From a virus: DNA of 64,000 nucleotides. The DNA lies in the UHGV virus genome UHGV-0057186, one strand, 5' to 3'. Positions 785 through 36,451 of the stretch are shown here, one piece after another. The position numbers and the translations under genes were made by a program. Within the stretch, counting starts at the first letter, position 1, and the number at the start of each line of letters is the position of its first letter. The notes beneath the pieces are model-generated. The model made no database searches. It was given only the letters and a program-made list of their open reading frames with translations, and was not told where the DNA came from.

Positions 785-959
785 GGAGTTTAATTTCCTT
801 AGCAACTGAACTAAATACAGCACGATCACAAATAATGTGTTTATGTAACTTAAGTATAAGATAATAAACATCATAACCATTTACGTAAGTAACACGAACA
901 ACATTACCATTAATAAAATAATATTGTCCCTTTTTAATTTCTTTATCAACCACAACCAT
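777..959 (-). CDS. hypothetical protein (60 aa)
   Basis: ATG at 957-959 with GAGGA SD; early-type promoter immediately upstream. Confidence 0.55.
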   Translation of the reverse strand: MVVVDKEIKKGQYYFINGNVVRVTYVNGYDVYYLILKLHKHIICDRAVFSSVAKEIKLHG

Positions 960-989
960 ATCAATTCCTCAAAGGTAATTCATATGTTA

Positions 990-1019
990 ATAATACCACG
1001 GTTTGAACTTGTTGTAAAC
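990..1019 (-). promoter_or_regulatory. early sigma70-type promoter (GTTTAC -35, TATTAT -10)
   Basis: minus-strand GTTTAC (1014-1019) and TATTAT (990-995) with 18-nt spacer, followed by SD and ATG of 777..959. Confidence 0.5.
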
Positions 1020-1090
1020 AACTTTGTGAAAAATATTTTAGGGAATGACAAGAAGGGAACGATAGCTTAGAATGGTAATATACAGAATGT

Positions 1091-6169: not shown

Positions 6170-6273
6170 TTAAGTCATTTATCGTTGGTTCATTATATAC
6201 TGTTTCTTCATCAGTGTAAACCGGTTCTTCCGGCTCTGGCTCTACAGTTTCCCATCTAGCCGCCCACCAAGGT

Positions 6274-8512: not shown

Positions 8513-9514
8513 TTACTTAATTAACTGTAAAGCTTGTTCAAGACGATCCAGGCGATTAACAGATTCTTCCCAAATCCTTTTAGCTTGCTCATATTCTTTC
8601 TGTGCTTTATTAGAAATTTCTAGAACTTCTTTATAAGCTTTTTCTAGTGCAATAACTTCTGGACGAATTTCTACTGGTTCAGGCGAATCGTCAAGACATT
8701 CCATTAGTTCCTCAAGGGTAGTTTCTTCTTTAGGAGTATTCACAATTTCATCACATTTTTGTTGGTAAATTTCTTTATCAGTCGGTGAGTACGCACACTT
8801 TACTTCACGGAGACTAACTACAATTTTATATCCTTCCCAACCGCATATATTCTTAAAAGGATAAGTATGAATATTTTCTACTGTTTCCATACAAAGTAAT
8901 GCGGTCTCTAACTGACGAGTTATATCGCTAGCAATTGAGAAAAATTTATTAATGTTCTTTTGATTAGCTTCTGGTGTAAAAAATTCATAATTCACAAAAA
9001 TAGCTGCTTTATTTTTATCAAGCTCATATTCTTTTATGATAATCATATCAGAAGCCCAAGGATGGATTTGACGATAATCACCATAGCATAATTTAGAAGC
9101 TGATTTTAGAATTTGCTTCTTGAAAAGTCTAAAATTACTAATCCAACGACGAGTAAAAATATTCTCAGGGTCTTCTTTATTATTAAGATGATAAGAATTA
9201 ACATCACCGAACCAACTGTATCCTACTACATCTTTAGTTCGTTTAATTTCTTTCCCAAATTTACCAAGAATATCTTGATTAACTAAATATGAAAGAAGAC
9301 GAGAACCTTTAAAAGTTTCCTTAATATCATCTTTATATTCGCGACTAGAAATTTTATGAACTTCATGAATAAATTTGCTTGAAGAAACAATACTTGCATC
9401 AATATTATTGAGCCATTGATTGATAATGGAAATAACACTATTCTGACTAAACACAGGTTTAACTTTATCATCAATAACGCTATTGAATGATTTGATATAT
9501 TCGTTACGAGTCAT
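8513..9514 (-). CDS. hypothetical protein with C-terminal coiled coil (333 aa)
   Basis: start MTRNEYIKS with GAGGAG SD and promoter upstream; C-terminal coiled coil. Confidence 0.65.
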   Translation of the reverse strand: MTRNEYIKSFNSVIDDKVKPVFSQNSVISIINQWLNNIDASIVSSSKFIHEVHKISSREYKDDIKETFKGSRLLSYLVNQDILGKFGKEIKRTKDVVGYSWFGDVNSYHLNNKEDPENIFTRRWISNFRLFKKQILKSASKLCYGDYRQIHPWASDMIIIKEYELDKNKAAIFVNYEFFTPEANQKNINKFFSIASDITRQLETALLCMETVENIHTYPFKNICGWEGYKIVVSLREVKCAYSPTDKEIYQQKCDEIVNTPKEETTLEELMECLDDSPEPVEIRPEVIALEKAYKEVLEISNKAQKEYEQAKRIWEESVNRLDRLEQALQLIK

Positions 9515-9542
9515 ATTAATCTCCTCAGTAGAAAGTAAGAAC

Positions 9543-9572
9543 ATTATACCACATCCTTGTGGCAAAGTAAAC
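9543..9572 (-). promoter_or_regulatory. early sigma70-type promoter (GTTTAC / TGgTATAAT)
   Basis: minus-strand GTTTAC, 18-nt spacer, extended -10 TGGTATAAT, then GAGGAG SD and ATG of 8513..9514. Confidence 0.55.
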
Positions 9573-10591
9573 TAGTTTAGTGCATTTAGTGCATTGTTCA
9601 GTTTAGAACGTTGCTTCGTAAGATTTTTGACTTTTTCTTGAGCTTTTTCTAGCATCTTTTCAGCTTCTAACACTTCATTAGTTGCTTTAACGAGTTCATC
9701 ATCTACTGCCTTGATAGACTTCTCAATCGCATCCGCGTGCCATTTTTCAACAGGTTTAAAACTCGGATTTTCAACAGGAAGAAAATTCACTTTATTGAAT
9801 TTCCATGTATCTTTATTACCTGAACTATACATCCAAAATTTAGGATCGTTTGATGAGTAATTGGATAAATTTAAGATATCTTGCACTTCCTGCTTTTTCT
9901 CTTGCGGGACTTCGTCCTTTCTCAAAAAATCGTATTTAAATGAAACGATCATATCAAGTTCATACGTTGTTGTATGTTCCCAATTTCGCTCAAAATGAGG
10001 TAAAATCTTAGACTGAACCGCGGCAACTACATCCATATACTTAAATGCTTCTGTCAACTGTGATTTAAGGCATTCACAAATTGAAAGAGAATTTTTTGTA
10101 TTAGGTTTAAAGCTAATTCGTGCAGTTCTGTTATTTTCTTTTAATGGTCTTACTTCCATCTGAAGAGTATAACCATCAAATTTCAGATTCTTTAAGTTAA
10201 TATCAGAACCTTTTAATCGACTAGCCGTCGACAAAATTTGCTTTAATTGTTTACGGAATAGAGCAATAAATCTCCACTCAATACGATAATGATTTGGATT
10301 GAAAAATCCAGATGATAAATCGACCTTACTCTGACCAACACCTTGAACAAATAGAGGATTTTTATAATCAATAGTTTTACAGAAATCAGTGAGCTGCTCA
10401 CGAGCAGTCATTTGTGTAATATACCCCGCTTTACTAAAATGACGTAATAATTCACTGCTATTTAGATATTTAAAGTGAATAGCACGATTAACTTTATCAG
10501 GGTCTAAATTATTTTCACACAAAAATGTCATAACATTACGAGTATCGCTGCCAGTACGAACCATATCTTCAATTTGAGAACGAGTTTTCAT
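9572..10591 (-). CDS. hypothetical protein with C-terminal coiled coil (339 aa)
   Basis: AAGGAA SD; coiled-coil C-terminus LEAEKMLEKAQEKVKNLTKQRSKL. Confidence 0.65.
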   Translation of the reverse strand: MKTRSQIEDMVRTGSDTRNVMTFLCENNLDPDKVNRAIHFKYLNSSELLRHFSKAGYITQMTAREQLTDFCKTIDYKNPLFVQGVGQSKVDLSSGFFNPNHYRIEWRFIALFRKQLKQILSTASRLKGSDINLKNLKFDGYTLQMEVRPLKENNRTARISFKPNTKNSLSICECLKSQLTEAFKYMDVVAAVQSKILPHFERNWEHTTTYELDMIVSFKYDFLRKDEVPQEKKQEVQDILNLSNYSSNDPKFWMYSSGNKDTWKFNKVNFLPVENPSFKPVEKWHADAIEKSIKAVDDELVKATNEVLEAEKMLEKAQEKVKNLTKQRSKLNNALNALN

Positions 10592-11958: not shown

Positions 11959-12486
11959 TTATGCGAGTACCGTCTTTAACCGTTCTTCAAACTTCCGAAG
12001 AGTATTTTGGCGTTCAGCTCTTTGCTTTTTGTAAGTTTCAATACGCTCTGAAATGAGAGTGTATCGTTCATTTACTGATTCTTTCATAAAATCAGGAATT
12101 TCATGAGAAGCTTTAATCTCGTCAAATTTATCAATAACTGCTTGCTCTTCAGCAATTAAGTTATCATACATCAAAATATCTTTCTTGATGAACTCAATAT
12201 CTTCTTGAGTTACACGAGATAATTTAGATGCTTTATCCTTTTTGTACTGTTCGTTAGTATCACGAGACCAGTGTAATGTACGATTTTTATTCGTATTCTT
12301 GTAAATTTCTACAATACCAATCTCATCGATAATAACGATCCAATTCCAACGAGATTTGTAAATTTGTCCTCCGTCAACCGTGATTTCACCTCCGATTGAG
12401 ATGTCATTAAAGAACTTGCTTTGTGCTTCAGATTTAAATTTACCATCGTTGTAATTTACCAGGTTGAAAATATCTTTAGCGTTCAT
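11959..12486 (-). CDS. hypothetical protein (175 aa)
   Basis: GGAGG SD; promoter cassette upstream. Confidence 0.65.
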   Translation of the reverse strand: MNAKDIFNLVNYNDGKFKSEAQSKFFNDISIGGEITVDGGQIYKSRWNWIVIIDEIGIVEIYKNTNKNRTLHWSRDTNEQYKKDKASKLSRVTQEDIEFIKKDILMYDNLIAEEQAVIDKFDEIKASHEIPDFMKESVNERYTLISERIETYKKQRAERQNTLRKFEERLKTVLA

Positions 12487-12513
12487 TTTGTGTTCCTCCG
12501 TAGTTGATAGTTG

Positions 12514-12544
12514 TATAGTACCACAGAGGAACAGTCTTGTAAAC
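12514..12544 (-). promoter_or_regulatory. early promoter cassette (GTTTAC / TACTATA)
   Basis: minus-strand GTTTAC-N18-TACTATA-CAACTATCAAC; near-identical copy at 30174-30204. Confidence 0.55.
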
Positions 12545-12546
12545 CA

Positions 12547-12861
12547 CTAAAAGAAACTTCTTTCACAATTTTTTCCACTGAACCACGCGCTCACTGCTTT
12601 CTTAGTCTCAGGAGCAGTGTTATCCATAAACCATTCAAAGGCAGCCTTTTTATGATTCTGGAGGGCTTCTCGGGCTTTAATCTGCTCACGGTCTATTAAC
12701 ACTAACATATGAGCCTTTCTTGTCACCATGGGCTTCTTATGATTTTTTGAATATTCCCAATCATTTGTCCATCGCATCGTTGTTGCGAATTGAAGTACAG
12801 CTTCTTTAATTTTAGTTTCGTAAATTTCACGAGCCTTTGAGTATAACATCATTACCTCCAT
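12547..12861 (-). CDS. hypothetical protein (104 aa)
   Basis: ORF in track. Confidence 0.55.
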   Translation of the reverse strand: MEVMMLYSKAREIYETKIKEAVLQFATTMRWTNDWEYSKNHKKPMVTRKAHMLVLIDREQIKAREALQNHKKAAFEWFMDNTAPETKKAVSAWFSGKNCERSFF

Positions 12862-12950: not shown

Positions 12951-13919
12951 TTATTTCAGAAGAGTAACCTCAGCGATTTCTTCCCAACCGTTTTTGTCGG
13001 TCATAATAAAGTCAGCAAGATAAAGAGCAGTACGCAGTGAAACATTGCGTAAACGATTAACATTGACTTTCATCCATGATAATGCTTTATAAGTTTCTTC
13101 ATCAGAAAGACCGCGTTTTTGCATCATGTCAGTTGAAAGAATAACATCTTCAACCCTGACCATAATTTCTTCATTAGTGTGAACACCCAAATCTAAATAA
13201 ACTGAGCGGGACACTAATGCTTGTAAATGTGGAGCAAGTTTAGTACCACGGTCTAATTCGCGGTCAATGTCAACGTTTGTGATAAAAACAATCGTTCCTT
13301 TAAATTCAAACTCACGCTCAATGCCTTTTTCTTCTAAGTAAGAAGACGCAGTACTCCAGCAGACTTTACGGGTCTCTCCAGTGTCCAGAGCGGCTTTTAG
13401 AAGATTAAGAATGTCCATATCAGAGAAAACATCCACATCATCAATCAAAAGGACAGAATTCTCTTCACGATTATTCCAAAGCTGCTCATAAAGACCAATA
13501 CCAGAGATTTTACCATTAATGCTTTTATATTCAATGTATCCAATATCATTTGCTTTATTTAAAGCTTTATCTAAAGAATACGTTTTACCAATACCTGCTG
13601 CGCCAGAGATAATTAATGAACGAATATTTCCATTAATAATACCATTCGTCATCATTCCCATAACATTAAATCTTTTATTAATGCGGGTTTTCATATCTTC
13701 ATACGATTCTTTAACTTCTTCAACTTTTACACCATCATATGAAATGTCTGATTTGTAAACCCAAACACCGCGACGTTTACCGTCAATTTCAACAAAAACT
13801 TTACCATCTCCTTGTGCATCTACCGGAGCATTATCTGGGAACCATTCGCCTAAAAGCTCAAAAGTTCCAGAGATTTCTTTACCGAAGTAGATACCCTTAT
13901 TGATAGTTACAGTTTTCAT
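12951..13919 (-). CDS. P-loop NTPase (AAA-like ATPase)
   Basis: Walker A GAAGIGKT and Walker B LLIDDVD; 322 aa; GGAG SD. Confidence 0.7.
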   Translation of the reverse strand: MKTVTINKGIYFGKEISGTFELLGEWFPDNAPVDAQGDGKVFVEIDGKRRGVWVYKSDISYDGVKVEEVKESYEDMKTRINKRFNVMGMMTNGIINGNIRSLIISGAAGIGKTYSLDKALNKANDIGYIEYKSINGKISGIGLYEQLWNNREENSVLLIDDVDVFSDMDILNLLKAALDTGETRKVCWSTASSYLEEKGIEREFEFKGTIVFITNVDIDRELDRGTKLAPHLQALVSRSVYLDLGVHTNEEIMVRVEDVILSTDMMQKRGLSDEETYKALSWMKVNVNRLRNVSLRTALYLADFIMTDKNGWEEIAEVTLLK

Positions 13920-13937
13920 TTTATTCTCCTTTGATTT

Positions 13938-13974
13938 GATAGGACTACTATAACATAGTCCTATCAGTTTGTAT
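13938..13974 (-). promoter_or_regulatory. promoter with 10-bp perfect inverted repeat around the -10 region
   Basis: GATAGGACTA-N8-TAGTCCTATC palindrome (13938-13965) with GTATAC -35-like hexamer at 13969-13974. Confidence 0.45.
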
Positions 13975-13976
13975 AC

Positions 13977-14177
13977 TTATTTTGACATTTCTTCGATGTC
14001 ACGACGATACCCGTCACGAACTTCACGAAGAGCTTCAAGGCCACACATAGGCTCGATACCAGTAATGTGAACTTGATTAATCTGATACTCTACATCTTCT
14101 AACTGAGCGAAAACATAACGACGTTCAGCTGCACAACCAGATTTAGCTTTACCGAAACGTTTATTCAAAGTAGTCAT
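13977..14177 (-). CDS. hypothetical protein (66 aa)
   Basis: GGAG SD; promoter upstream. Confidence 0.5.
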   Translation of the reverse strand: MTTLNKRFGKAKSGCAAERRYVFAQLEDVEYQINQVHITGIEPMCGLEALREVRDGYRRDIEEMSK

Positions 14178-14214
14178 TTTGTATCTCCAATTTACTCATT
14201 TGTTTTGATAGGTC

Positions 14215-14245
14215 TATAGTATCAACAACTACAGACCATGTAAAC
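14215..14245 (-). promoter_or_regulatory. early promoter cassette (GTTTAC / TACTAT)
   Basis: GTTTAC-N18-TACTAT with GGTCT/AGACC inverted repeat flanking the -10. Confidence 0.5.
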
Positions 14246-14248
14246 AAT

Positions 14249-14512
14249 TTATTTTAATTTTCGCCAAATTTTTACTGCTTCTCGCCTCGATACTTCTACG
14301 GCGCCAAGTTCTATAGCTTTTTGACGACGACTTGCACGTAAGTCATAATGTTTAATGCGTTTATCTTGAAACCAAGAACGTTTCATTCCTATTGCTTCTG
14401 CCATTTCGTGAAGCTCTTCAATATCTCCATCAGTGAACATATGACAATTTTTAGTTGGATGACCGCGAAGTTTCCATCCATGATTCATTAAAACATCTAC
14501 GTAAACTGTCAT
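14249..14512 (-). CDS. DUF4031-like protein (87 aa)
   Basis: MTVYVD...HGW...HMFTDGD..ELH..A...G....WFQ....HYDL pattern resembles the DUF4031 family; from memory, not searched. Confidence 0.5.
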   Translation of the reverse strand: MTVYVDVLMNHGWKLRGHPTKNCHMFTDGDIEELHEMAEAIGMKRSWFQDKRIKHYDLRASRRQKAIELGAVEVSRREAVKIWRKLK

Positions 14513-14658
14513 TGATTCTTCTCCAAATAAGTTTCGATAATTTTCTGGGCGAGATAAACCGCGTTATCTTCAGTTGCGTCTTCTAAGAAACTTTCAAAAC
14601 ACTCTGAAATTTCTTCTGTATCAATCAACTTTTTTACTTCAATTGGTGTAATTTTCAT
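14509..14658 (-). CDS. hypothetical small acidic protein (49 aa), not in ORF track
   Basis: ATG 14656-14658, clean 49-codon frame MKITPIEVKKLIDTEE..., stop overlaps next ATG (ATGA); promoter cassette upstream. Confidence 0.35.
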   Translation of the reverse strand: MKITPIEVKKLIDTEEISECFESFLEDATEDNAVYLAQKIIETYLEKNQ

Positions 14659-14693
14659 TTTGTTTTCCGTTTAAGTGTTTGTTTTGATAGTTG

Positions 14694-14724
14694 TATAGTA
14701 CCATAAAGCTTTATGCTTGTAAAC
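14694..14724 (-). promoter_or_regulatory. early promoter cassette (GTTTAC / TACTATA)
   Basis: GTTTAC-N18-TACTATA-CAACTATCAAAAC. Confidence 0.5.
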
Positions 14725-14748
14725 AGTTTTGTGAAAAATTTTTGAAAT

Positions 14749-14772
14749 AAAAAAGGGAGCCCGAAGGCTCCC
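14749..14772 (-). terminator. intrinsic terminator
   Basis: GGGAGCC-TTCG-GGCTCCC hairpin followed by TTTTTTATTTC on minus strand, 3 nt after stop of 14775..15788. Confidence 0.55.
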
Positions 14773-15788: not shown

Positions 15789-16258
15789 TCAGCCTTATAT
15801 TCAATAACAGGACATACTTTAGCTTTACGCGCTTTTAAAAATTCGACGATAATAGATTTCTTGGGTTGAATAGGAGGTAAACCTTTATACGCCCTATCAA
15901 TATTTTCTACATGTAAAGCATAATCCTTTTTCCATTTATAATCTTTATATTTTTCACGCAGTTGTGCAGGAATAACAAATGAACCGATAATAAGTAAAAC
16001 AAGCAAAATGGCAAGTATAAATGCTGATGGAATAAGAGTCCATAAACTACCAAAAATAAGCCATTTCTGCATGATTTCTGCGCAGATAATAGTTAGACCT
16101 ACGAGTATAGTACATCCGAAAAAAGAAACGAAAAATGTAGGAATAACAATAGACCAAAAATACGCGCACAGTGTCTTAGGTCGTTGCCATTCATCGTTAA
16201 ACAATTTGAATAATTTATAGTGCCAAGAGTTTTCATTAATAATCATAATTATAATCAT
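15785..16258 (-). CDS. membrane protein (157 aa)
   Basis: multiple hydrophobic helices; start overlaps upstream stop. Confidence 0.6.
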   Translation of the reverse strand: MIIIMIINENSWHYKLFKLFNDEWQRPKTLCAYFWSIVIPTFFVSFFGCTILVGLTIICAEIMQKWLIFGSLWTLIPSAFILAILLVLLIIGSFVIPAQLREKYKDYKWKKDYALHVENIDRAYKGLPPIQPKKSIIVEFLKARKAKVCPVIEYKAE

Positions 16259-16776
16259 CCTTTCATTGAAGGCGTAACGGTTGTTAAATACTTAATCATA
16301 GCTTCAGCTTCTGATTTTGATAATGAAATTTCTCCATTGTTTTGACGAATAGAAATAAAATCCGGATGACGGTCACCACCGGCTTTTAAAACACACATAT
16401 AAGTATCAGTTTCATCTTCAATATTTGAAATGATTGAAGCAGTTCCACACGAATGTGGTTTTTGATAAATCAATACAGCTTTTCTTCCACCATTTGACTG
16501 TTCATAAACTTTTAATACATCAAACAAATCACTTCTTTTATCAATAGCTAAAATGTTGTTTTCATCTTCAATGTTAAATCCTTCGGATACTTCATAAAGT
16601 GTCACCCATAAATCACCTATATCGATAGTAGCATTTTCCTTTCCATGACTTTCAAGAGCATGACAAATTTTCTTGATTTCGTCATAACTCATTTTAATAA
16701 TATCATCTCCTTGACTAAGAAAGATGTCATTTTTAAATTCAACACGAATTAAACCGCTTCCACTTGAAATAAACAT
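16255..16776 (-). CDS. hypothetical protein (173 aa)
   Basis: ORF in track; C-terminal tail resembles that of 16783..17325. Confidence 0.6.
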   Translation of the reverse strand: MFISSGSGLIRVEFKNDIFLSQGDDIIKMSYDEIKKICHALESHGKENATIDIGDLWVTLYEVSEGFNIEDENNILAIDKRSDLFDVLKVYEQSNGGRKAVLIYQKPHSCGTASIISNIEDETDTYMCVLKAGGDRHPDFISIRQNNGEISLSKSEAEAMIKYLTTVTPSMKG

Positions 16777-16782
16777 ATTTCC

Positions 16783-17325
16783 TCACTTTGAAATCATAGT
16801 TGGAATGACAGAATCAAGATAAGTCTTTAACGCAATAGCTTCGTCTTTGGTAAATGTGACAATATGCGCTCGAAAATCATCAATTTGACGAATAGTTAAG
16901 ACATCTCCATCTTCATAACATTTTGATACATTTAAAACAGTTTCATCATTCTGATCGCACTGATCGCAAGCGTTAGTAATAATAGCATTGCAATTTTTAA
17001 GCCATTTTAAACTATGTTTTCTTTCATTAGAATAATAAAAATATTTAATGTAAGTTATAAAATTATCCCAATTATTAATTGATAAGCATATTGACTCGCT
17101 TTCAATGTTAAATCCTGGGCATAAAGAATAGAAATGAATTTTATGCTCATCATTAATGCTTACAATTTTATCAGTGTAAGGTTTTTCAATTTGGGTTAAA
17201 TGAATAATTTCGCTAGGCGTAAAATATAGCATATCGTCTTCTTGCGTCAAACGATACATATTATTTACTTTTTCTATAGCCAATTCACCAAAAAATGAAC
17301 TAACTTCTAATACTAATCGTTTCAT
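16783..17325 (-). CDS. hypothetical protein (180 aa)
   Basis: ORF in track; possible paralogue of 16255..16776. Confidence 0.6.
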   Translation of the reverse strand: MKRLVLEVSSFFGELAIEKVNNMYRLTQEDDMLYFTPSEIIHLTQIEKPYTDKIVSINDEHKIHFYSLCPGFNIESESICLSINNWDNFITYIKYFYYSNERKHSLKWLKNCNAIITNACDQCDQNDETVLNVSKCYEDGDVLTIRQIDDFRAHIVTFTKDEAIALKTYLDSVIPTMISK

Positions 17326-17326
17326 A

Positions 17327-17605
17327 TTAATCCTTTTTATTTGCGCTGATTTGTTCTAAAATTTTAGAGTATTCCTTTGTATCAGATTTACGTACAATTG
17401 ATACACTATAAGGCATACTATCGGTGTCTTTTATAAAGCGTTCCAAATGACACTCTAACAAAATTTCTGGATTATAAATCGTGTACATCAAATTACCTGT
17501 TGCTCCACGATATTGGCAGATTTCTACTGATTGAACACCATTCCATAATTTTGTTAAAACTAAGTCACCTACTTCTAATTTAGGAAAACTCATATTATTC
17601 ACCAA
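17327..17605 (-). CDS. hypothetical protein (92 aa)
   Basis: ORF in track. Confidence 0.55.
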   Translation of the reverse strand: MVNNMSFPKLEVGDLVLTKLWNGVQSVEICQYRGATGNLMYTIYNPEILLECHLERFIKDTDSMPYSVSIVRKSDTKEYSKILEQISANKKD

Positions 17606-17780
17606 TTAAAGTTTCAATATAAGAATCAAGATTTACTTTAGCTTCTTCCATAAGAGTTTTGTATTTAATCTTGTTAGCATGTCCGGAGAAAGCTGATTCA
17701 TCAATAATTGTTGATGTATGAACAGCTTTACTATACGTCTCAATTAATTCTCTTAATTTAAAAGCCTGCTCACTTGTCAT
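17595..17780 (-). CDS. hypothetical protein (61 aa)
   Basis: ORF in track. Confidence 0.5.
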   Translation of the reverse strand: MTSEQAFKLRELIETYSKAVHTSTIIDESAFSGHANKIKYKTLMEEAKVNLDSYIETLIGE

Positions 17781-17884
17781 TACATACTCCTTTGAATAAT
17801 ATCAATAATGTTGTTCACCAGATTATAAGTAAACATTGGGTAATTATATTGAATCATCACATACACAACAAACAAAACTTTCAT
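17780..17884 (-). CDS. small hydrophobic peptide (34 aa), not in ORF track
   Basis: AAGGAG SD 7 nt before ATG 17882-17884; MKVLFVVYVMIQ...; stop overlaps next ATG. Confidence 0.3.
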   Translation of the reverse strand: MKVLFVVYVMIQYNYPMFTYNLVNNIIDIIQRSM

Positions 17885-17912
17885 TCTCTTCTCCTTGGCA
17901 GTTGACAAGATT

Positions 17913-17942
17913 ACTATACCATAACCTTGCCAACTTGTAAAC
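17913..17942 (-). promoter_or_regulatory. early promoter cassette (GTTTAC / TATAGT)
   Basis: GTTTAC-N18-TATAGT. Confidence 0.45.
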
Positions 17943-17944
17943 CA

Positions 17945-18091
17945 TTAAATGACGTTTTCAATAAAATTCTGAAGCTTTGTGTGAGCATCAACCATGATTT
18001 TCATTTCTTCTTTTGCGAAAGCTGTACCTCTTTCCCGAGCAGAATACTCATAGTCAGAAACTGCATTAGCATATTCTTCAATTAGTTTCAT
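17945..18091 (-). CDS. hypothetical small protein (48 aa), not in ORF track
   Basis: clean frame MKLIEEYANAVSDYEYSARERG...; codon by codon checked; weak SD. Confidence 0.35.
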   Translation of the reverse strand: MKLIEEYANAVSDYEYSARERGTAFAKEEMKIMVDAHTKLQNFIENVI

Positions 18092-18107
18092 TAAAAACAT
18101 CTGCTTT

Positions 18108-18302
18108 TCAGTTTTCATTATTCCACCTAATCATTTCAAGATATTGAACTAACTTAGCTTTAGATTTATCCAAATCCTTTTTAGCTGCTTCTATACCGTC
18201 GTATGAATATCCTTCACAATGCTCAACTGCTAATTGATATGAATCTATTTCAATATCACGTGCTAATTTAATGATTTTTTCAAACTGTTCGCGTGTTAGC
18301 AT
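18108..18302 (-). CDS. hypothetical protein (64 aa)
   Basis: ORF in track. Confidence 0.5.
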   Translation of the reverse strand: MLTREQFEKIIKLARDIEIDSYQLAVEHCEGYSYDGIEAAKKDLDKSKAKLVQYLEMIRWNNEN

Positions 18303-18508: not shown

Positions 18509-18696
18509 TATTCCACCACATATGAAAGAGAGAATATTGCACACGCCATATGAGTTGCAACTTCATCACACATATTATAACGTTTCTTGAGAAATTCTAC
18601 AAGTTCTTCACTAGTAACTTCATCCATGTCGACGAAAAAATCACCATTAATGATGACGTAGATATTTCCTTCTTGATTGAGTGCTTCAATTTTCAT
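18508..18696 (-). CDS. hypothetical protein (62 aa)
   Basis: start MKIEALNQ with GAGGAG SD; promoter cassette upstream. Confidence 0.5.
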
Positions 18697-18723
18697 GATG
18701 TTCTCCTCTTTATCCGATGGTTG

Positions 18724-18754
18724 TATAGTACCACAGCTCAAACGGAAAGTAAAC
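18724..18754 (-). promoter_or_regulatory. early promoter cassette (GTTTAC / TACTATA)
   Basis: GTTTAC-N18-TACTATA. Confidence 0.5.
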
Positions 18755-18764
18755 CGGTAAAATG

Positions 18765-18786
18765 AAAAAAGTCTCCCGAAGGAGAC
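18765..18786 (-). terminator. intrinsic terminator
   Basis: GTCTCC-TTCG-GGAGAC hairpin followed by TTTTTT on minus strand after stop of 18792..19178. Confidence 0.55.
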
Positions 18787-22450: not shown

Positions 22451-22912
22451 TCATTGAGTTTTAATTACTGCTTTAGAAGCCTTTCCTGGTAAACGACGAC
22501 TGTTAATAATTGCCATCCTACATTGAAGTGACGGGTCTTTGAACTTCGCGTTAGGTTTACAAACTGTAAATCCAAGCCAAAGATTTCCATCTGTGATTTC
22601 TAAACGTCCAGGACGATATTCAACCCCATCAATAAAATCCTCGTCAATGTCAGGGCGCGGAGGCATACTCAGGAATTCATTAACTTCTAAAACATGGTCT
22701 TTTATTTTATGGAATAATTCAAAAACATATGTCTCGTCAATCTCCCGTTGAATTGCACGATCAAGAAGATGCTGAGAATATTTTAGATGAAACGATGAGA
22801 CCCCTGCTGCTTTTGATGCCTCACGAATCTCATTGTTAATTTGACGAAACTCCGACTCAAAGTGACGACGAAGCTTATTTCGACGGATAAAAACTTCTGT
22901 ATTGATAGTCAT
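22451..22912 (-). CDS. regB: endoribonuclease RegB
   Basis: 153 aa, matches T4 RegB as I recall it; GAGGAG SD; promoter cassette upstream. Confidence 0.9.
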   Translation of the reverse strand: MTINTEVFIRRNKLRRHFESEFRQINNEIREASKAAGVSSFHLKYSQHLLDRAIQREIDETYVFELFHKIKDHVLEVNEFLSMPPRPDIDEDFIDGVEYRPGRLEITDGNLWLGFTVCKPNAKFKDPSLQCRMAIINSRRLPGKASKAVIKTQ

Positions 22913-22939
22913 GTTATTCTCCTCTTAACTGATAGAAAA

Positions 22940-22968
22940 ATTATACCACAGTCAAGAGGAAAAGTAAA
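22940..22968 (-). promoter_or_regulatory. early promoter (GTTTAC / TATAAT) for regB
   Basis: GTTTAC-N17-TATAAT followed by GAGGAG SD. Confidence 0.55.
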
Positions 22969-22971
22969 CAG

Positions 22972-23250
22972 TTATTCTTTAAATCTAATCAATTTATTCA
23001 TAGACTTTGAAACTTCTGCACGAACCTCATGTAGATTTTTGAGCTGTTCAAGACGCTGCTCATAGTAAGCAATTTCATCTTCTTCGAGACAGTCCTGTGA
23101 ATCTTCTTTAAGATAACGTGCATAGTCCTGGAAAGCGTTACGAACTACTTCCTGGAAGTCATCAAGACTTTGAATTTTCTTAGGAGCAACAGATACACGA
23201 CGAGGGGCAGTATAATACTCATAACCAAACCCTGCGCTTAATTGAGCCAT
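22972..23250 (-). CDS. hypothetical protein (92 aa)
   Basis: start [13 protein letters not shown] coupled to upstream stop. Confidence 0.5.
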
Positions 23251-25118: not shown

Positions 25119-25592
25119 TTATTTGAATGATTTGACGTACTGAATAGAACCTTTACTATTCACGAAAGCGATTTTACCATTTTTATTATACATGGTAGCA
25201 GTACGCTGATAGCCATAAGTTTGTTTACCAGATTGATAACCAACTAATGCGAAATTATCTTCACCCATTTTATTCTGTTTAGCGCGAATACGTTCATGAC
25301 CGTGTGCCATAAGAACCTTAGCATCACCAGTTGAAATTGATCTACGAGTTTTTTCATCTTCAACTGTATTAACAAAGTCGTCAAATGAATCAAATTTAGC
25401 ATGGGATTTATTATACAGTTTTCCATCTACTGCATAATTATATCCCTGTACATCCATCTCAACTTCTGTACCATCATCCAATACAGCAGTAATTTTTTGA
25501 CCTTTTTTAAATTTCAAAAGATCAGTAAAAGATTCAGCAATAATTTGAGAATTAATAGCTGCTTCAGTGATAAATTCTTGATATGTTTTCAT
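25119..25592 (-). CDS. internal-protein-like (capsid-targeting N-terminus)
   Basis: N-terminus MKTYQEFITEAA matches T4 internal protein capsid targeting sequence; 157 aa. Confidence 0.55.
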   Translation of the reverse strand: MKTYQEFITEAAINSQIIAESFTDLLKFKKGQKITAVLDDGTEVEMDVQGYNYAVDGKLYNKSHAKFDSFDDFVNTVEDEKTRRSISTGDAKVLMAHGHERIRAKQNKMGEDNFALVGYQSGKQTYGYQRTATMYNKNGKIAFVNSKGSIQYVKSFK

Positions 25593-25648
25593 ATGTTTCC
25601 TTTAAATGTAAATATTTTTGCCGTAATACTTGTACCAGTGTGGCTTCA

Positions 25649-26017
25649 TTAAAATTTTTCATCGAGTCGTTGTTGACTCAATTTAATAGCTGATTTGCAT
25701 GGATTATAATCATTTTTCCATTCTGCTGGAATATCGCTGATGTCAGGAACTTCAGTATCTTTTATACTAAACCCACGTTTTAAGCATTCCGTTATAATGT
25801 CTGATTGACGCTTTCGCAAAAATTCTAACTTATCGTAAAAGAACGTAACATGACCAGAGCCTAAAATAAACTCGGAAGATATTTTAAAATCTTTAACCCG
25901 CTTACCATTTGCCACATGTTTACGAACTATACCAAAAACACGCGGCAATTCACGATACTCAGCCATAAGATGTTGGTCGGTCAGTTCAGAAACAAGTGTT
26001 AAATTGATACGAGTCAT
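25649..26017 (-). CDS. denV: endonuclease V, pyrimidine dimer DNA glycosylase
   Basis: [12 protein letters not shown]...[16 protein letters not shown] matches T4 DenV; GGAGG SD. Confidence 0.9.
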
Positions 26018-26043
26018 AATTTCCTCCAAGTAGTTGATGAATG

Positions 26044-26074
26044 TATAGTATCAAAGTCCTTGGAGGAAGTAAAC
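26044..26074 (-). promoter_or_regulatory. early promoter cassette for denV
   Basis: GTTTAC-N18-TACTATA; spacer arm TTCCTCCAAG complementary to SD region. Confidence 0.55.
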
Positions 26075-26075
26075 A

Positions 26076-27316
<1,241 letters not shown>

Positions 27317-27320: not shown

Positions 27321-27805
27321 TTTAATTTCCTGCATTCAGTGATAAAGCTATTTAAATTTTGAGCATATTTCTTTTCATCATAAATCTTTTGCTGTCTGCG
27401 TAAACGCCATGGCATTTCAATGAACACGCACCATATTCCTGATAGTACTGCTGCTGTAAAAATATTAACAAGTATAATTAAAAGAATCCAATCTTCCGTT
27501 CTGCCTACTGGACTTTCTCCAAAGAAGCAAAATACAAATGATGTCACAGGAAAACTAATAATATACCACAGAATAACCTTCTTATCTGTGAACCAATCAG
27601 CGTTCGTTAACTTAGCACGACCATTTTGAATACACACGAATTTATCATCTGTTACAGTAGATGGCTTAACTGCTTGATATCCCATTCTAAACTCCCTAAT
27701 TAATCGTTTCTTTGTATCTTCAGAACAGCCGCTCCAGTCAACTCTATCGACTGAAATGCCATCGTCCCCATCATCTAAATCATACCAGCGAGTTTTTAAA
27801 ATCAT
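27317..27805 (-). CDS. membrane protein, e.x junction family
   Basis: two TM helices; C-terminal FITECRKLK tail; ATGA coupling to nudE. Confidence 0.55.
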
Positions 27806-29168: not shown

Positions 29169-29762
29169 TTATTTCAGAGAATTAATGTATTCCTGAACAT
29201 CGGCAGAGGTAGTTTCAACCCCAGAAATATTACCGTTAAAGGTTTCAACTCGAGCAAGGGTATCTTCAATATCAACCTTAGTCAGTGCTGCAATTTCAAC
29301 TACATCATCAGCAGTACTAATTCCAAGGGCATTTGCTGCACGAGTTTCACGGATATATTCCAATTTAACCGCAAGTTCTTGACGAGCATCATCTAACTCA
29401 ACTACTTTCTTGGCGATTTCAATTCGCATTTCAGCATAACCGTCAGCCTTAGTAGTCAACTGCTCAGCTGTTCGACGATATAGTAAACCGAGTTTAGCAT
29501 GCATTGTTACATCTTGGCCTTCGGAAAGAAGTTTACGAATTTCACGCTCTTTTGATTCGGCCTGTCGATTCTTTTCGATAACAAGTTCACGAATACGTTT
29601 TTCTTCGTTAATAGATTTAACAGAAGCAGTTTTTAGATCTTTAATTTTATCAAGTAGTTTTGCTGCTGCAGCAGTATACTGTTCTTCGACAGATAGATTT
29701 TTAGCCATAGCAGAACCAAGTTTAGTGCGAATAAACTCAACAATTTTCTTCAGTGTGTTCAT
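29169..29762 (-). CDS. coiled-coil protein (197 aa)
   Basis: long predicted helices; composition reminiscent of PspA-like proteins but unverified. Confidence 0.55.
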
Positions 29763-29866
29763 AGTATTTCCTTAGGTTGATTAAGATTTAAAATCCGTAA
29801 AAGTAGTATTATACTCTATCATCAAGTTACAGGCTCATAATATCTCAATCATGAGCCTATGTAAAC

Positions 29867-30130
29867 TTATTTCATATTATTAAAATATTCTTCTGCGATT
29901 TCGTCGTTATCGTGGTAAACTTTAGAAGACAGTTTAACATAACCTTCAGCAGTGAACATATTAATCACAACCTTTACAGTATACCACTGTCCGTCTTCAT
30001 TACCCATTACTGCGTAAGTTTCAAACATCGGATGGTCAGGACCGATAACTTTAATATCATTCACTGTACGACCAAAATCTTCTGAAACGCATTTCATAAA
30101 GAAGTTGAACAGTTCGCCGTAATTATCCAT
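29867..30130 (-). CDS. hypothetical protein (87 aa)
   Basis: start MDNYGELFNFF with GGAG SD; promoter cassette upstream. Confidence 0.5.
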   Translation of the reverse strand: MDNYGELFNFFMKCVSEDFGRTVNDIKVIGPDHPMFETYAVMGNEDGQWYTVKVVINMFTAEGYVKLSSKVYHDNDEIAEEYFNNMK

Positions 30131-30173
30131 TTCATTCTCCAAGTTGTTTTTCTGTATCAGTAGTTGATAGTTG

Positions 30174-30204
30174 TATAGTACCATGGAAGAACAGTCTTGT
30201 AAAC
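30174..30204 (-). promoter_or_regulatory. early promoter cassette (GTTTAC / TACTATA)
   Basis: near-identical to cassette at 12514-12544. Confidence 0.55.
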
Positions 30205-30338
30205 CATTTTGTGAAAAAAAAATTTTTAAAAGTTTTAGGGAATTCTAGGGAGGGATGGGCAATTAAAGGATAGGATAATATATTATAAAGGGTATAAACT
30301 AAATGATGCCTAGAGAGGTCCAGAAAGGCCTAGATACC

Positions 30339-30363
30339 AAAAAGCCCTATCATTTAGATAGGG
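30339..30363 (-). terminator. intrinsic terminator
   Basis: CCCTATC-TAAAT-GATAGGG hairpin followed by CTTTTT on minus strand after stop at 30372. Confidence 0.5.
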
Positions 30364-30371
30364 ATTTAAAA

Positions 30372-30656
30372 TTATTTGCTTAGTTTAGTTATTATAGCTT
30401 CTGCGGCAGCTTTTAGCTTAGATGCGGTGTTAATACGATTTTTAATTTCAGTATACGCATCGCCAAGAACATCAAGGCTATCGGAATAAACACTTACACT
30501 ATTGCGTTCGCTATTTGAAATAGAACCTTTAGTTTTGCGATCAAAATCGGTGTACACGTCTTGAAGATCACGGGCTGCCTTCTTTGCATCATCCAATGCC
30601 ATTGCTTCCATGGCCCAGTGTGTTTCAGGGTCTATGTTTTCAATCTCACGGGTCAA
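30372..30656 (-). CDS. hypothetical protein (94 aa, TTG start) or 3' part of a gene interrupted by an in-frame TAA
   Basis: frame continues upstream through TAA (30687-30689) to ATG 30741-30743 with GAGGA SD; GGGAG precedes the TTG. Confidence 0.4.
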   Translation of the reverse strand: MTREIENIDPETHWAMEAMALDDAKKAARDLQDVYTDFDRKTKGSISNSERNSVSVYSDSLDVLGDAYTEIKNRINTASKLKAAAEAIITKLSK

Positions 30657-30777
30657 TGCAACTCCCAGGTCTTTTGCAAATTTTTGTTATTCAGGAGTTA
30701 ATGAATCATATAACTTTTTCATTTCTTTATCTTCAATATTCATAATATTTTCCTCAAGGGGCTTTCGCCCCAATCAT

Positions 30778-31083
30778 TTAGATTTTATTTTCCTGCACAC
30801 CATAATACAGTTCATCAGACACGATATTCAGGATGCGGCGAACATATTCATCATGGTAACGACATTCAAAATCAAATTCAACTGTAGTTTCTGCTTCACG
30901 AGTAAATTTAACAACCACATTCAGGTGGTTAACAACTTTAGTAAAGCTGTCAGTAAAGAACTCTTTTGCTACTGCTTGTTGTACTTGTACTTTATACTTT
31001 GTATTGCGAATCATGTTTTCAGCTGATGCGAAATTACCAGTTTTATCAAAGTCAACAAGCGCCAGGTTGATGATGAATTTCAT
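30778..31083 (-). CDS. hypothetical protein (101 aa)
   Basis: start MKFIINLALVDF preferred; upstream extension in track lacks SD. Confidence 0.5.
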   Translation of the reverse strand: MKFIINLALVDFDKTGNFASAENMIRNTKYKVQVQQAVAKEFFTDSFTKVVNHLNVVVKFTREAETTVEFDFECRYHDEYVRRILNIVSDELYYGVQENKI

Positions 31084-31192
31084 TTTATTATCCCGTTTGT
31101 TTATTTGGTAACTCAGTATGGGATAATTATACACCCGGTCAATTCGGATGTACACTACTTTTTGAAGAAAATTTCAAATTTATTCGGGGTAT

Positions 31193-31220
31193 AAAAAAGC
31201 CCCAACCTTTTGGTCGGGGC
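31193..31220 (-). terminator. intrinsic terminator
   Basis: GCCCCGACC-AAAA-GGTTGGGGC hairpin followed by TTTTTT on minus strand. Confidence 0.55.
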
Positions 31221-31365
31221 TAAGAATGTTATTTGATTTGTTTAGCAGACCAAATGCGGTCTTTGATGATTTTTTGGAGGTCTTCAACATACTCTAGGTC
31301 ATGAGCATGTGGATTATCTTTAAAACTATAAGCTCGCGCAAGTTTCTGGCCTTCGGTCTTAATTA

Positions 31366-31689
31366 TCAAAAGTTCTTTAAGAATTGCTTCATACCTAGAG
31401 ATAATTCCTTTAGCAATATTTTTTCTTGTGCTGCTTTAGGGTCAGCCTTAGGAGCAGGTTTACCAGAAGGTTTTTCGAAAGCCGCGCCAGTAGCAACCAG
31501 GCTTTTCCAGGCGGTGGTAACATAGTTACCCACAAAGCCTTCAGCTCTCATATCGTCGTAGAACTTGTACCGAGATTCGTCAGAAGCATCTTTATAAGAA
31601 TATTTACCAGCTTTAATAGCAGCAGTTGCTACAGCGCGAACATCTGAAGCGGATGCTTCGGTCATTAAAAATTGAGCATAAGTTTTCAT
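31366..31689 (-). CDS. internal-protein-like (capsid-targeting N-terminus)
   Basis: MKTYAQFLMTEASA start; AGGAAA SD; late promoter upstream. Confidence 0.55.
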   Translation of the reverse strand: MKTYAQFLMTEASASDVRAVATAAIKAGKYSYKDASDESRYKFYDDMRAEGFVGNYVTTAWKSLVATGAAFEKPSGKPAPKADPKAAQEKILLKELSLGMKQFLKNF

Positions 31690-31717
31690 TGTTATTTCCT
31701 GTGTTAATTAACTCATC

Positions 31718-31725
31718 TATTTATA
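31718..31725 (-). promoter_or_regulatory. late promoter (TATAAATA)
   Basis: minus-strand TATAAATA about 30 nt upstream of ATG of 31366..31689. Confidence 0.5.
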
Positions 31726-31727
31726 CC

Positions 31728-31754
31728 AAAAAGCCCCAACCTTTCGGCTGGGGC
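31728..31754 (-). terminator. intrinsic terminator closing the tRNA/stable-RNA transcription unit
   Basis: GCCCCAGCC-GAAA-GGTTGGGGC hairpin followed by TTTTT on minus strand. Confidence 0.55.
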
Positions 31755-31804
31755 TAAGCCTTGCGGCAACCTTGTCGGGGTTCCACCTGCTAAGGCAAGT
31801 GTTT

Positions 31805-32895: not shown

Positions 32896-32899
32896 AAAT

Positions 32900-32986: not shown

Positions 32987-32995
32987 AAATTAATT

Positions 32996-34868: not shown

Positions 34869-35053
34869 TATTCACCTTTAGAAATTTTATCCATAACGAT
34901 AGCAATTAAACCAATTAAAAATGCTACTACAAGTGAAAAAACATTTTCTGCCGTAGTCAATAATCCGCATATAAATCCAACAAACATTGAAAAACTGAAA
35001 GCGGAAGCAGAAATTGCAATAGCAACATTTCGAATTAATTCACAGCGTTTCAT
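34868..35053 (-). CDS. small membrane protein (61 aa)
   Basis: start MKRCELIRNVAIAISASAF with GAGGAG SD; two hydrophobic helices. Confidence 0.45.
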   Translation of the reverse strand: MKRCELIRNVAIAISASAFSFSMFVGFICGLLTTAENVFSLVVAFLIGLIAIVMDKISKGE

Positions 35054-35080
35054 TTTATTCTCCTCAGTAGTTGATAGGGT

Positions 35081-35110
35081 AATAGTATCACTACCCCATC
35101 TAAAAGTAAA
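35081..35110 (-). promoter_or_regulatory. early promoter cassette variant (ATTTAC / TACTAT)
   Basis: -35-like TTTACT, TACTAT -10 flanked by GGGTA/TACCC inverted repeat. Confidence 0.4.
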
Positions 35111-35111
35111 T

Positions 35112-35345
35112 TTATTTTTTACGAAAAATTGATTTATTTTCTGCTGCCCATTTTTCAATAACTGCAGCAGGACCAGTAACAACAATTTTATCACCGTAAT
35201 CTTCTGCGGCGAGTTGACCGAAATTATCTAATGCATCACGAAGAACTCCATGAGGCATTTCACCCATTTTATCTTTCTTGCCGGTGTAAATAAACTCAAC
35301 TTTTGCATCAGAAGATTCAGCGATAAATTCTTTGAAAGTTTTCAT
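35112..35345 (-). CDS. internal-protein-like (capsid-targeting N-terminus)
   Basis: MKTFKEFIAESSDAK start; 77 aa; weak SD. Confidence 0.5.
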   Translation of the reverse strand: MKTFKEFIAESSDAKVEFIYTGKKDKMGEMPHGVLRDALDNFGQLAAEDYGDKIVVTGPAAVIEKWAAENKSIFRKK

Positions 35346-35382
35346 TTTAGTTTCCATTCGATTGTTTTGTTTTGATAGGGTA

Positions 35383-35412
35383 ATAGTATCACAACTAAAA
35401 CCCTATGTAAAC
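35383..35412 (-). promoter_or_regulatory. early promoter cassette (GTTTAC / TACTAT)
   Basis: GTTTAC-N18-TACTAT with ATAGGG/CCCTAT inverted repeat. Confidence 0.5.
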
Positions 35413-35424
35413 AACTTTGTGAAA

Positions 35425-35682
35425 TTATTTTAAATCTTCTAATCGTTTCTTCATCTTAGAACCATTTTTAGCAATTTCTCCTGCATCGGAGCATAATGCT
35501 AAAAGTGCTTTAACTTTAGTTTGGTCTCCTTTAAAAGATGAAGGATCGACTGCAGCAGCAAGTTCTTTAATACGAGAGAAAAGACGCTCAGCTTCAGCTA
35601 AAGCCATTCCAAGCTTTACTTCCATACCGTGAGAAGATTCAGTGATAGTAGTTTTTGTAGCAAACTCTTTGAAAGTTTTCAT
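35425..35682 (-). CDS. internal-protein-like (capsid-targeting N-terminus), ipI position
   Basis: MKTFKEFATK start; paralogue of 26076..26357; adjacent to 57B as ipI is in T4. Confidence 0.55.
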   Translation of the reverse strand: MKTFKEFATKTTITESSHGMEVKLGMALAEAERLFSRIKELAAAVDPSSFKGDQTKVKALLALCSDAGEIAKNGSKMKKRLEDLK

Positions 35683-35712
35683 TTTATTTTCCTAATTAAT
35701 TTTGATGAGATA

Positions 35713-35742
35713 ATAGTATCACTATCTCATCAGCATGTAAAC
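35713..35742 (-). promoter_or_regulatory. early promoter cassette (GTTTAC / TACTAT)
   Basis: GTTTAC-N18-TACTAT with GATGAGATA/TATCTCATC inverted repeat. Confidence 0.5.
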
Positions 35743-35754
35743 AACTTTGTGAAA

Positions 35755-36451
<697 letters not shown>

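Follow-up and report, generated by a model that had tools for sequence, protein, structure and literature searches.

PeSL-like modules with predicted T4-type early promoters in the early region of a Tequatrovirus genome

Introduction

In the T4-like phages RB49 and phi1, PeSLs have been defined as elements that combine an AT-rich stretch, a sigma-70-like early promoter, a stem-loop and an SD with ATG (Arbiol et al., 2010; PMC2839356). Their stem-loop lies between or over the -35/-10 boxes, or beside them, and the elements are associated with hyperplastic regions, indel junctions and mini-circles (PMC2839356). The same work regarded elements of the T-even IP locus as analogues of PeSLs, based on T4 early promoters and having weaker, AT-rich stem-loops (PMC2839356). 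For the T4/PST pair, the consensus TTTACW-N17-TAYWAT was reported, and several PeSLs were placed in the same nrdC region that is examined here (Comeau et al., 2014; PMC4122927). The polymorphic IP loci of T-even phages were described by Repoila et al. (1994), as cited in PMC2839356 and PMC4122927.

T4 early promoters themselves consist of UP, -35, TGn and -10 elements with extra conserved positions (PMC2988021). They carry GTTTAC at -36 to -31, and many such promoters precede novel ORFs in T4-like phages (PMC1524935). In T4, 5' ends at the promoters of denV and mobD.5 were detected by primer extension 3 min after infection (PMC1702504); no genome-wide T4 transcription start-site map was found in our literature search. 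In addition, hairpins at genes e, soc, 49 and I-TevI act together with late promoters (PMC3014915). Thus, the module family considered below and its occasional role in recombination are already known and published. In Rfam, no family covering the modules could be identified.

Here, we analyzed 64,000 nucleotides of the virus genome UHGV-0057186 (hereafter the window), for which an original prediction from the letters alone had listed 14 minus-strand promoter sites as candidate recombination breakpoints. On the basis of current results, these modules are very probably T4-type immediate-early promoters, each joined to a leader, an SD and a start codon, and occasionally used as recombination sites.

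Results and discussion

Genome and region

The genome in the window is that of a Tequatrovirus (T4-like) phage. When compared with the T4 reference annotation, its minus strand of 1-39 kb corresponded to the T4 early region 55.x-nrdC-tk-regB-denV-e-tRNA-ipI, in which the gene order was 55.x, nrdH, nrdG, nrdD, 49, pin, nrdC to nrdC.11 and mobD.x, followed by rI, tk, vs, regB, denV, e, the tRNA cluster, ipI, 57, 1, 3, 2 and 4. Late genes (53, 5 and onward) occupied the plus strand from 39.2 kb, and the sign of GC skew switched at ~40 kb, which agrees with the change between early and late strands. The segment 11500-13500 matched 741 phage records, mostly Tequatrovirus, and had an identity of 99.5% with Escherichia phage YUEEL01 and of 99.2% with Yersinia phage fPS-65. 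One IMG/VR contig was 100% identical over 1962-22486.

A dispersed family of promoter modules

All 14 sites of the original prediction could be found, with coordinates good to 1-9 nt, and all of them were located within the early region, at 1-36 kb (Table 1; modules are named below by their -35 position or their gene). They shared a core of GTTTAC-N18-TAnnnT with a TGn extended -10, an AT-rich stretch upstream and TATCAA at the predicted start. The distance from GTTTAC to TAnnnT was exactly 18 nt in all 14, each of which also had TG at -15/-14 and an SD plus ATG 27-44 nt past the -10; GTTTAC was exact in 12 sites, and the other two had ATTTAC and GTATAC. AT content of the 30 nt upstream was 76%, versus 65% for the region, and TTTCACAAA recurred in five modules. 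The column consensus was ttt.a.aaA.t.GTTTACat.....t..g..tgTGgTActATa..ccTATCAA. As a repeat, the module is ~45-80 nt long and present in 14-15 copies in the early-gene region.

Most details of the predicted family could be confirmed, and some needed revision. The near-identity proposed for two copies was borne out, as 44 of 47 nt were the same between 12500-12546 and 30160-30206; the second best pair shared 35 of 47 nt and the median was 26 of 47. The site given as 13938-13974 does exist but is better placed at 13947-13976, where the -35 is the degenerate GTATAC and TGn, -10 and TATCAA are nevertheless retained. The modules had been said to border small ORFan genes, and genes of unknown function indeed lay downstream of 10 of the 14, while the others preceded regB, denV and two internal-protein-type genes. 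The modules are not the only dispersed repeat family, as had been claimed, because a terminator hairpin family with three copies and SD/ATG repeats were also present in the window.

Table 1 Coordinates and features of the promoter modules and of the terminator hairpin family
Feature	Position	Strand	-35, -10 and start codon	Internal stem-loop	Other features
P(55.6-like) module	957..1044	minus	-35 1019-1014, -10 995-990, ATG 959	none (core + own leader folding)	T4 orthologue -35 at 41706; terminator-like hairpin upstream, 1114-1100
P(nrdC.4) module	9512..9597	minus	-35 9572, -10 9548-9543, ATG 9514	short spacer hairpin CCACA/TGTGG	T4 orthologue at 50973
P(nrdC.8) module	12484..12569	minus	-35 12544, -10 12520-12515, ATG 12486	spacer arm TGTTCCTCTGTGG with SD region CTACGGAGGAACA; -20.2 kcal/mol, equally stable chimeras 0/26
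P(nrdC.10) module	13917..14001	minus	-35 GTATAC 13976, -10 13952-13947, ATG 13919	12-bp hairpin GATAGGACTATG/TAGTCCTATC around -10	lower boundary of cassette indels 13929..14174 and 13929..14652
Module of 66-aa ORF (13977-14177)	14175..14270	minus	-35 14245	hairpin GGTCTGTAG/CTATAGACC around -10	ORF missing from T4
Module of 49-aa + 87-aa (DUF4031) ORFs	14656..14749	minus	-35 14724		intrinsic terminator 14773-14754 directly upstream
P(mobD.2) module	17882..17967	minus	-35 17942, -10 TATAGT	15-bp hairpin AGTTGGCAAGGTTAT/GTAATCTTGTCAACT around -10; one-sided changes in relatives keep pairs	T4 orthologue at 57990
P(mobD.5) module	18694..18779	minus	-35 18754		terminator 18787-18770 upstream
P(regB) module	22910..22994	minus	-35 22969, -10 TATAAT	spacer arm TCCTCTTGACTG with SD-containing CAGTTAAGAGGA; -22.4 kcal/mol
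P(denV) module	26015..26099	minus	-35 26074	spacer arm TTCCTCCAAG perfectly paired with SD-containing CTTGGAGGAA	upstream edge of -35 is an indel boundary
15th, weaker intergenic member, absent from the original prediction	29760..29891	minus	GTTTAC 29866, -10 TATTAT	hairpin AGGCTCAT/ATGAGCCT around -10	core 29837-29866, no TGn
P(e.8) module	30128..30229	minus	-35 30204		44/47 nt match to P(nrdC.8)
Terminator hairpin family, three copies (30339-30369, 31194-31224, 31728-31758)	30339..31758	minus
P(trna.4) module	35051..35136	minus	-35 ATTTAC 35111	hairpin GATGGGGTAGTG/TATTACCCTATC around -10	lower arm of 280-bp cassette indel
Module of internal-protein-like 81-aa ORF (35112-35357)	35343..35437	minus	-35 35412		upper arm of 280-bp cassette indel; 21 nt GTGATACTATTACCCTATCAA common to 35111 module
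P(ipI-type gene 35425-35682) module	35680..35767	minus	-35 35742	13-bp hairpin TGATGAGATAGTG/TATTATCTCATCA around -10

The pattern GTTTAC-N16-19-TAYWAT gave 14 matches in the window, all on the minus strand, compared with 0.34 +/- 0.52 expected from 100 dinucleotide shuffles. Chance matches in AT-rich DNA were excluded by this excess together with the restriction to one strand, the start codons downstream of all sites and the conservation in relatives. The one observation in favor of chance is that a generic sigma-70 pattern was not enriched in the window (98 matches versus 85 expected from shuffles), and we regard this explanation as practically negligible. Since the generic scan was unenriched, the repeated family corresponds to the T4-specific consensus. 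A second scan, which tolerated a single mismatch in GTTTAC but required a spacing of exactly 18 nt, TAnnnT, and TG at -15/-14, identified 16 minus-strand and no plus-strand sites, namely the 14 sites and two weaker ones (2424-2452 and 37203-37232) with GTTTGC or GTTTAA as -35. Two intragenic look-alikes at 545-574 and 6192-6221 lacked TGn. The 15th intergenic member is situated upstream of e.6, at the site of e.7 in T4, and breakpoints were found in its region at 29779, 29809, 29819 and 29828.

Promoter identity

A motif-bearing T4 orthologue was present at the same position for 11 of the 14 sites, that is, upstream of 55.6, nrdC.4, nrdC.8, nrdC.10, mobD.2, mobD.5, regB, e.8, trna.4, ipI and denV. 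The record of fPS-65 also has features annotated as 'predicted early promoter' along the homologous region. Promoter activity in this phage is thus predicted by homology. According to established T4 knowledge and this orthology, unmodified host sigma-70 RNA polymerase would bind the UP stretch, the -35 GTTTAC(A), TGn and the -10 TAnnnT, and transcription would start ~7 nt past the -10, where the seventh base is the A of the conserved ATCAA.

Module-specific stem-loops

For every module, the core (-35 to -10) was folded together with its own leader and, as chimeras, with the 13 leaders from the rest of the family. The mean folding energy was -15.0 kcal/mol for own pairs and -8.5 kcal/mol for chimeras, and none of 20000 permutations was as low (14 modules). 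The result held for 19 independent modules taken from other T4-like contigs (-13.4 versus -8.9 kcal/mol; 0/20000); the independent set was restricted to T4-like contigs from a motif scan of viral contigs that gave mostly unrelated ones. To tell a role of the hairpin in RNA from one in DNA, folding of the two strands was compared. Sense folded better than antisense in the window set (p=0.007), and this advantage was not reproduced with the independent modules (p=0.66).

Of the 14 modules, 11 had a module-specific stem-loop around the -10, with its 5' arm in the spacer. The 3' arm was located just past the -10 in 13976, 14245, 17942, 35111, 35412 and 35742, and deeper in the leader, reaching the SD, in 9572, 12544, 22969, 26074 and 30204. 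The remaining three (1019, 14724 and 18754) had no specific stem; a classic terminator was present directly upstream of 14724 and 18754, and ~80 nt upstream of 1019.

Comparison with relatives revealed compensatory arm changes at regB, denV, nrdC.8 and ipI. At regB, the arms are TCCTCTTGACTG/CAGTTAAGAGGA here and in T4, and CTCCTCTAGTTG/CAACTAGAGGAG in RB69-like phages. At denV, they are TTCCTCCAAG/CTTGGAGGAA here and TCTCCTGTAG/CTACAGGAGA in T4, and a further lineage has TCTCCTGTG/CACAGGAGA. More distant phages have a hairpin that starts right past the -10 and again ends on the SD, and across distant Tevenvirinae denV showed four to five different arm sequences and regB a minimum of three pair changes. 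The ipI-type module showed a series from A-U through G.U to G-C. It should be noted that RNAalifold detected no structure in a MAFFT alignment of denV modules, since indels put the arms out of register, and arm pairs were thus compared directly. Alignment of orthologues anchored at the ATG misaligned many variants with leader indels.

SD masking and translation

With a 5' arm that is located upstream of the predicted start, the hairpin could form only in read-through RNA or in single-stranded DNA, and never in the module's own transcript. The SD region was predicted to be unpaired with a probability of 0.47 in read-through RNA, compared with 0.78 in the own transcript. Masking was bimodal: the SD was masked (unpaired 0.00-0.23) in 9572, 12544, 18754, 22969, 26074 and 30204, and free in the others. 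Over 33 modules, cognate and non-cognate promoter halves did not differ in SD masking (0.47 versus 0.51; Wilcoxon p=0.24), which indicates no general effect, and masking is therefore claimed for a subset only. For these six modules, the folding model suggests that the SD of a read-through RNA would be concealed by the hairpin. We tentatively propose, as a possibility that is appreciable but short of likely, that the spacers of regB, denV, nrdC.8, e.8, mobD.5 and nrdC.4 encode an anti-SD arm, by which these genes would be translated only from transcripts of their own early promoters and stay silent on read-through RNA. Our literature search found no experiments on hairpin gating at these six genes, and no description of covarying spacer-SD pairing at early promoters, which older T4 papers may cover.

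Instead, as has been proposed for PeSLs, the stem-loop might be a terminator or attenuator that shields each cassette against transcription coming from upstream and has no part in translation control. One stem-loop of RB49 lowered lacZ expression to the same extent as rrnB T1 (PMC2839356), and terminators consisting of a hairpin plus U run precede modules 1019, 14724 and 18754. However, the internal hairpins of the 11 modules are followed by A-rich sequence and no U run, the 3' arm is the SD in six modules, and compensatory changes across distant phages keep the pairing. We consider such an insulating role rather unlikely for the internal hairpins. If SD masking is functional, spacer-SD pairing would make some early genes dependent on their own promoter for translation, which would affect models of early-gene expression and the design of synthetic T4 cassettes.

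Recombination at modules

To examine whether indel boundaries coincide with the modules, we aligned positions 1-40000 of the window to 18 loci of close relatives and obtained 48 distinct indel or replacement events. A module was touched in seven of them, at both ends in three and at one end in four. The three both-end events had hybrid modules at their junctions, and the alignment blocks on either side of each overlapped in the relative. The 13929..14174 indel (overlap of 14 nt) is missing from fPS-65, BMB16, D5505 and one IMG/VR genome; the 13929..14652 indel (17 nt) from T4, RB27, pSs-1, WL-3 and others; and the 35091..35372 indel (21-24 nt) from T4, slur03, BMB16, pSs-1 and RB27. In T4, the promoter that matches the 14724 module is situated directly upstream of nrdC.10, so that nrdC.10 is driven by the promoter that serves the 49-aa ORF in the window; the two are identical through CTATCAA, which places the crossover in the leader. 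Similarly, the T4 trna.4 promoter consists of the 5' half of the window 35412 module and the 3' half of the 35111 module, joined within GTGATACTATTACCCTATCAA. Two of the three module-to-module crossovers were within the SD/ATG part, outside the -35/-10 core.

Other changes were also associated with modules. A gene replacement between the 35412 and 35742 modules corresponds to the polymorphic ipI locus, and the indel edge at P(denV) falls exactly at the -35, where T4 has ipII and ipIII. The spacer of P(e.8) has the patch AAGACTG, as in P(nrdC.8), in the window and fPS-65 only, and ATCCCTG, ATCTCTG or a similar patch is found there in 14 other relatives. In one genome, P(nrdC.8) has a TATTATTACCCTATCAAC patch resembling that of P(trna.4). 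Clustered patches were thus copied between modules 17.6 kb apart. The cassettes are polymorphic, occurring in 122, 155 and 242 records compared with 741 that have the flank; phage records with the cassette of the 66-aa ORF (14245 module) numbered 122.

Of the direct repeats that are dispersed among co-oriented, non-essential genes, the modules are the longest, and we therefore propose that crossover occasionally occurs between them. Following the published PeSL model, homologous recombination of the phage would sometimes cross over between two modules, by which cassettes may be inserted, deleted or swapped.

The wide and patchy distribution of cassettes, of which the two-ORF cassette occurs also in phages of Enterobacter, Salmonella, Proteus and Aeromonas, might suggest that the modules are mobile elements in their own right, with a recombinase or transposase dedicated to moving them. 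However, the junctions lie inside shared sequence, neither target-site duplications nor terminal inverted repeats were found, no recombinase gene is associated with the modules, and the nearby homing-endonuclease-like genes are at different, module-free breakpoints. Such mobility is very improbable.

Events at modules are a minority of the indels in this region, most of which involve other short repeats (SD/ATG and terminators) and homing-endonuclease genes. Seven junctions had an overlap: three between modules, two at SD/ATG repeats (15798..18109 and 27346..27802), one at terminator repeats (30363..31723, a segment missing from T4, with a 30-nt overlap) and one intragenic. Homing-endonuclease-like indel genes were found at 4333-5154 (NUMOD3 motif) and 32043-32597 (T5orf172/MUG113 domains). 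Modules make up 3.5% of the sequence and contained 10 of 96 breakpoint ends (binomial p=0.002). When gene junctions were compared with each other, promoter-bearing ones were breakpoints no more often than others (7/13 versus 32/74; Fisher p=0.34), and the same was true for junctions with spacers of at least 25 nt (7/13 versus 14/25; p=0.68). The expected association of modules with indel boundaries was thus found in part: seven of 48 events touch modules, three with hybrids, but without any excess over other junctions.

These data bear on whether the modules are promoters only, alike because of selection for binding by RNA polymerase and without a special role in cassette exchange. Their presence at indel edges would then be incidental, because nearly all indels are at gene boundaries, where promoters also sit. 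This is consistent with the absence of breakpoint enrichment at the level of gene junctions, with the 64 of 80 distinct breakpoint ends that lie within 30 nt of some gene junction, with the 41 of 48 events that involve no module and with other short repeats that yield the same kind of overlap junctions. On the other hand, the three both-end events with hybrid modules and 14-24 nt of shared sequence (three of the seven overlap junctions), the clustered patch copying and the formation of PeSL mini-circles, which was experimentally shown in RB49/phi1 (PMC2839356), argue for a part in recombination, and we think it improbable, though well worth considering, that the modules are promoters only. The number of events that touch modules, the SD/ATG and terminator junctions and the lack of a junction excess imply that the modules are one class of short homology and are not uniquely privileged; they are probably the longest such class for cassette exchange. 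For phage biology, this calls for some caution, as early promoters are one among several kinds of short-repeat exchange sites, without statistical privilege.

Comparison with known systems

With these results, 15 promoter cassettes of the genome are cleanly annotated, and it is confirmed that the T4 early-promoter/PeSL family is recoverable from raw sequence alone. The modules have the -35/-10 spacing, the TGn and UP elements, and the orthology on the early-gene strand that characterize T4 early promoters of the 'uber' UP/-35/TGn/-10 class. They agree with this class in GTTTAC at -36 to -31, the 17-nt spacer (E. coli numbering), TGn, TAnnnT, the A-rich UP region and the genes served (regB, denV, ipI, nrdC.x, mobD.x, e.8 and trna.4), and nothing essential differs. 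Three window modules serve cassettes that T4 is without (14245, 14724 in its present context, and 35412), and one has a degenerate -35 (13976).

With regard to the hairpins that sequester ribosome-binding sites at T4 e, soc, 49 and I-TevI, the window modules are similar in that the 5' arm lies upstream of the start of the local promoter and that, as predicted here for six modules, the SD would be free only on local-promoter transcripts. The difference is that late promoters delay translation at e, soc, 49 and I-TevI, whereas the internal promoter of the window modules is early.

The window resembles the T-even IP loci in the tandem cassettes of promoter plus IP gene at 35.0-35.8 kb and beside denV/e, and in replacement and in cassette loss or gain between conserved promoter-leader sequences. 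In contrast with these loci, window modules also occur elsewhere, in the nrdC, mobD, regB and e.8 regions.

At the sequence level, the family qualifies as PeSL: a promoter-associated stem-loop is found in 11 of 14 modules, the SD and start codon of the downstream gene are at the 3' end of the element in all 14, and the location is hyperplastic, mostly before small genes of unknown function (10/14). The PeSL interpretation of the original prediction was thus supported by consensus, stem-loop, SD/ATG, location and hybrid junctions, whereas its link to breakpoints was no stronger than that of gene boundaries generally. The modules share with PeSLs the combination of AT-rich stretch, early promoter, stem-loop, SD and ATG, the hyperplastic regions and the hybrid elements at indel junctions, and their consensus is that of the T4/PST pair. 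Most window stem-loops surround the -10, as in the RB49/phi1 subclasses, whereas in PST they were drawn just upstream of the promoter; the stems in the window are AT-rich and not GGGG/CCCC. Finally, unlike what is described for PeSLs, breakpoints in the window are not enriched at the modules beyond the gene-junction background.

Repeats at indel junctions

Comparison of the window with close relatives showed that different kinds of repeated sequence lie at the boundaries of variable segments (coordinates of the features are shown in the table below). The segment 30363..31723 is missing in T4, with a 30-nt overlap shared by the flanking alignment blocks at the junction, and this difference is an indel between two copies of the terminator hairpin. 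Blocks 15798..18109 and 27346..27802, both of which comprise whole genes, are absent in some relatives; their junction overlaps (23-30 nt) fall within SD/ATG regions, such as TGCAGGAAAnnAAATGA, and therefore translation-start repeats also serve as indel junctions. The SD/ATG repeat families recovered by a repeat search of the window correspond to the leader sequence GGAGAATAAAATG of nrdC.10 and trna.4. These two leaders match exactly the published RegB/S1 cleavage consensus GGAGRAYARAA, from which the majority of the remaining leaders of the promoter module differ at one or more positions.

In addition, the orthologue of the module upstream of nrdC.8 in IMGVR_UViG_2974787500_000001 contains, in its -10 and start region, a patch (TATTATTACCCTATCAAC) that is typical of the modules of trna.4 and the internal-protein loci. 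Its presence there suggests that short tracts of sequence are transferred between modules lying far apart.

Repeat, gene and ORF features of the window
Feature	Position	Strand	Location
273-aa ORF with NUMOD3 motif	4333-5154	minus	between nrdD and gene 49
Leader GGAGAATAAAATG of nrdC.10	13919-13931	minus	
Leader GGAGAATAAAATG of trna.4	35053-35065	minus	
Small internal-protein-type ORFs (4)	25119-25592, 26076-26359, 35112-35357, 35425-35682	minus	two polymorphic internal-protein loci
denV ORF	25649-26017	minus	
Terminator hairpins, AGCCCC..GGGGCTTTTT type (3)	30339-30369, 31194-31224, 31728-31758	minus	upstream of tRNA region
184-aa ORF, T5orf172/MUG113 domains (GIY-YIG-like)	32043-32597	minus	adjoins tRNA cluster
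tRNA genes (Arg, Asn, Tyr, Met, Thr, Ser, Pro, Gly, Leu, Gln)	32619-33568	minus	

Variable genes and comparison with T4

NUMOD3 is a DNA-binding motif of the homing-endonuclease type. Seven of the compared relatives, including T4, have approximately 56 nt in place of the NUMOD3 ORF, and a different segment of about 780 nt replaces it in three others; no promoter module is present at this breakpoint. At the site of the GIY-YIG-like ORF, gene content was different in every relative examined. The adjoining tRNA set is also not constant across relatives (fPS-65, for instance, encodes a tRNA-His as well), and the window has 10 tRNA genes versus eight in T4. The 3' end of denV coincides with an indel boundary (25601-25728), and thus the C-terminus of its product is unlike that of T4, the lengths being 122 and 138 aa, respectively. 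Other records annotate one of the four small ORFs in the internal-protein loci as an internal virion protein; all four begin with MKTYQEF, MKTYSEF or MKTFKEF, the signature found at the N-terminus of internal head proteins in T4.
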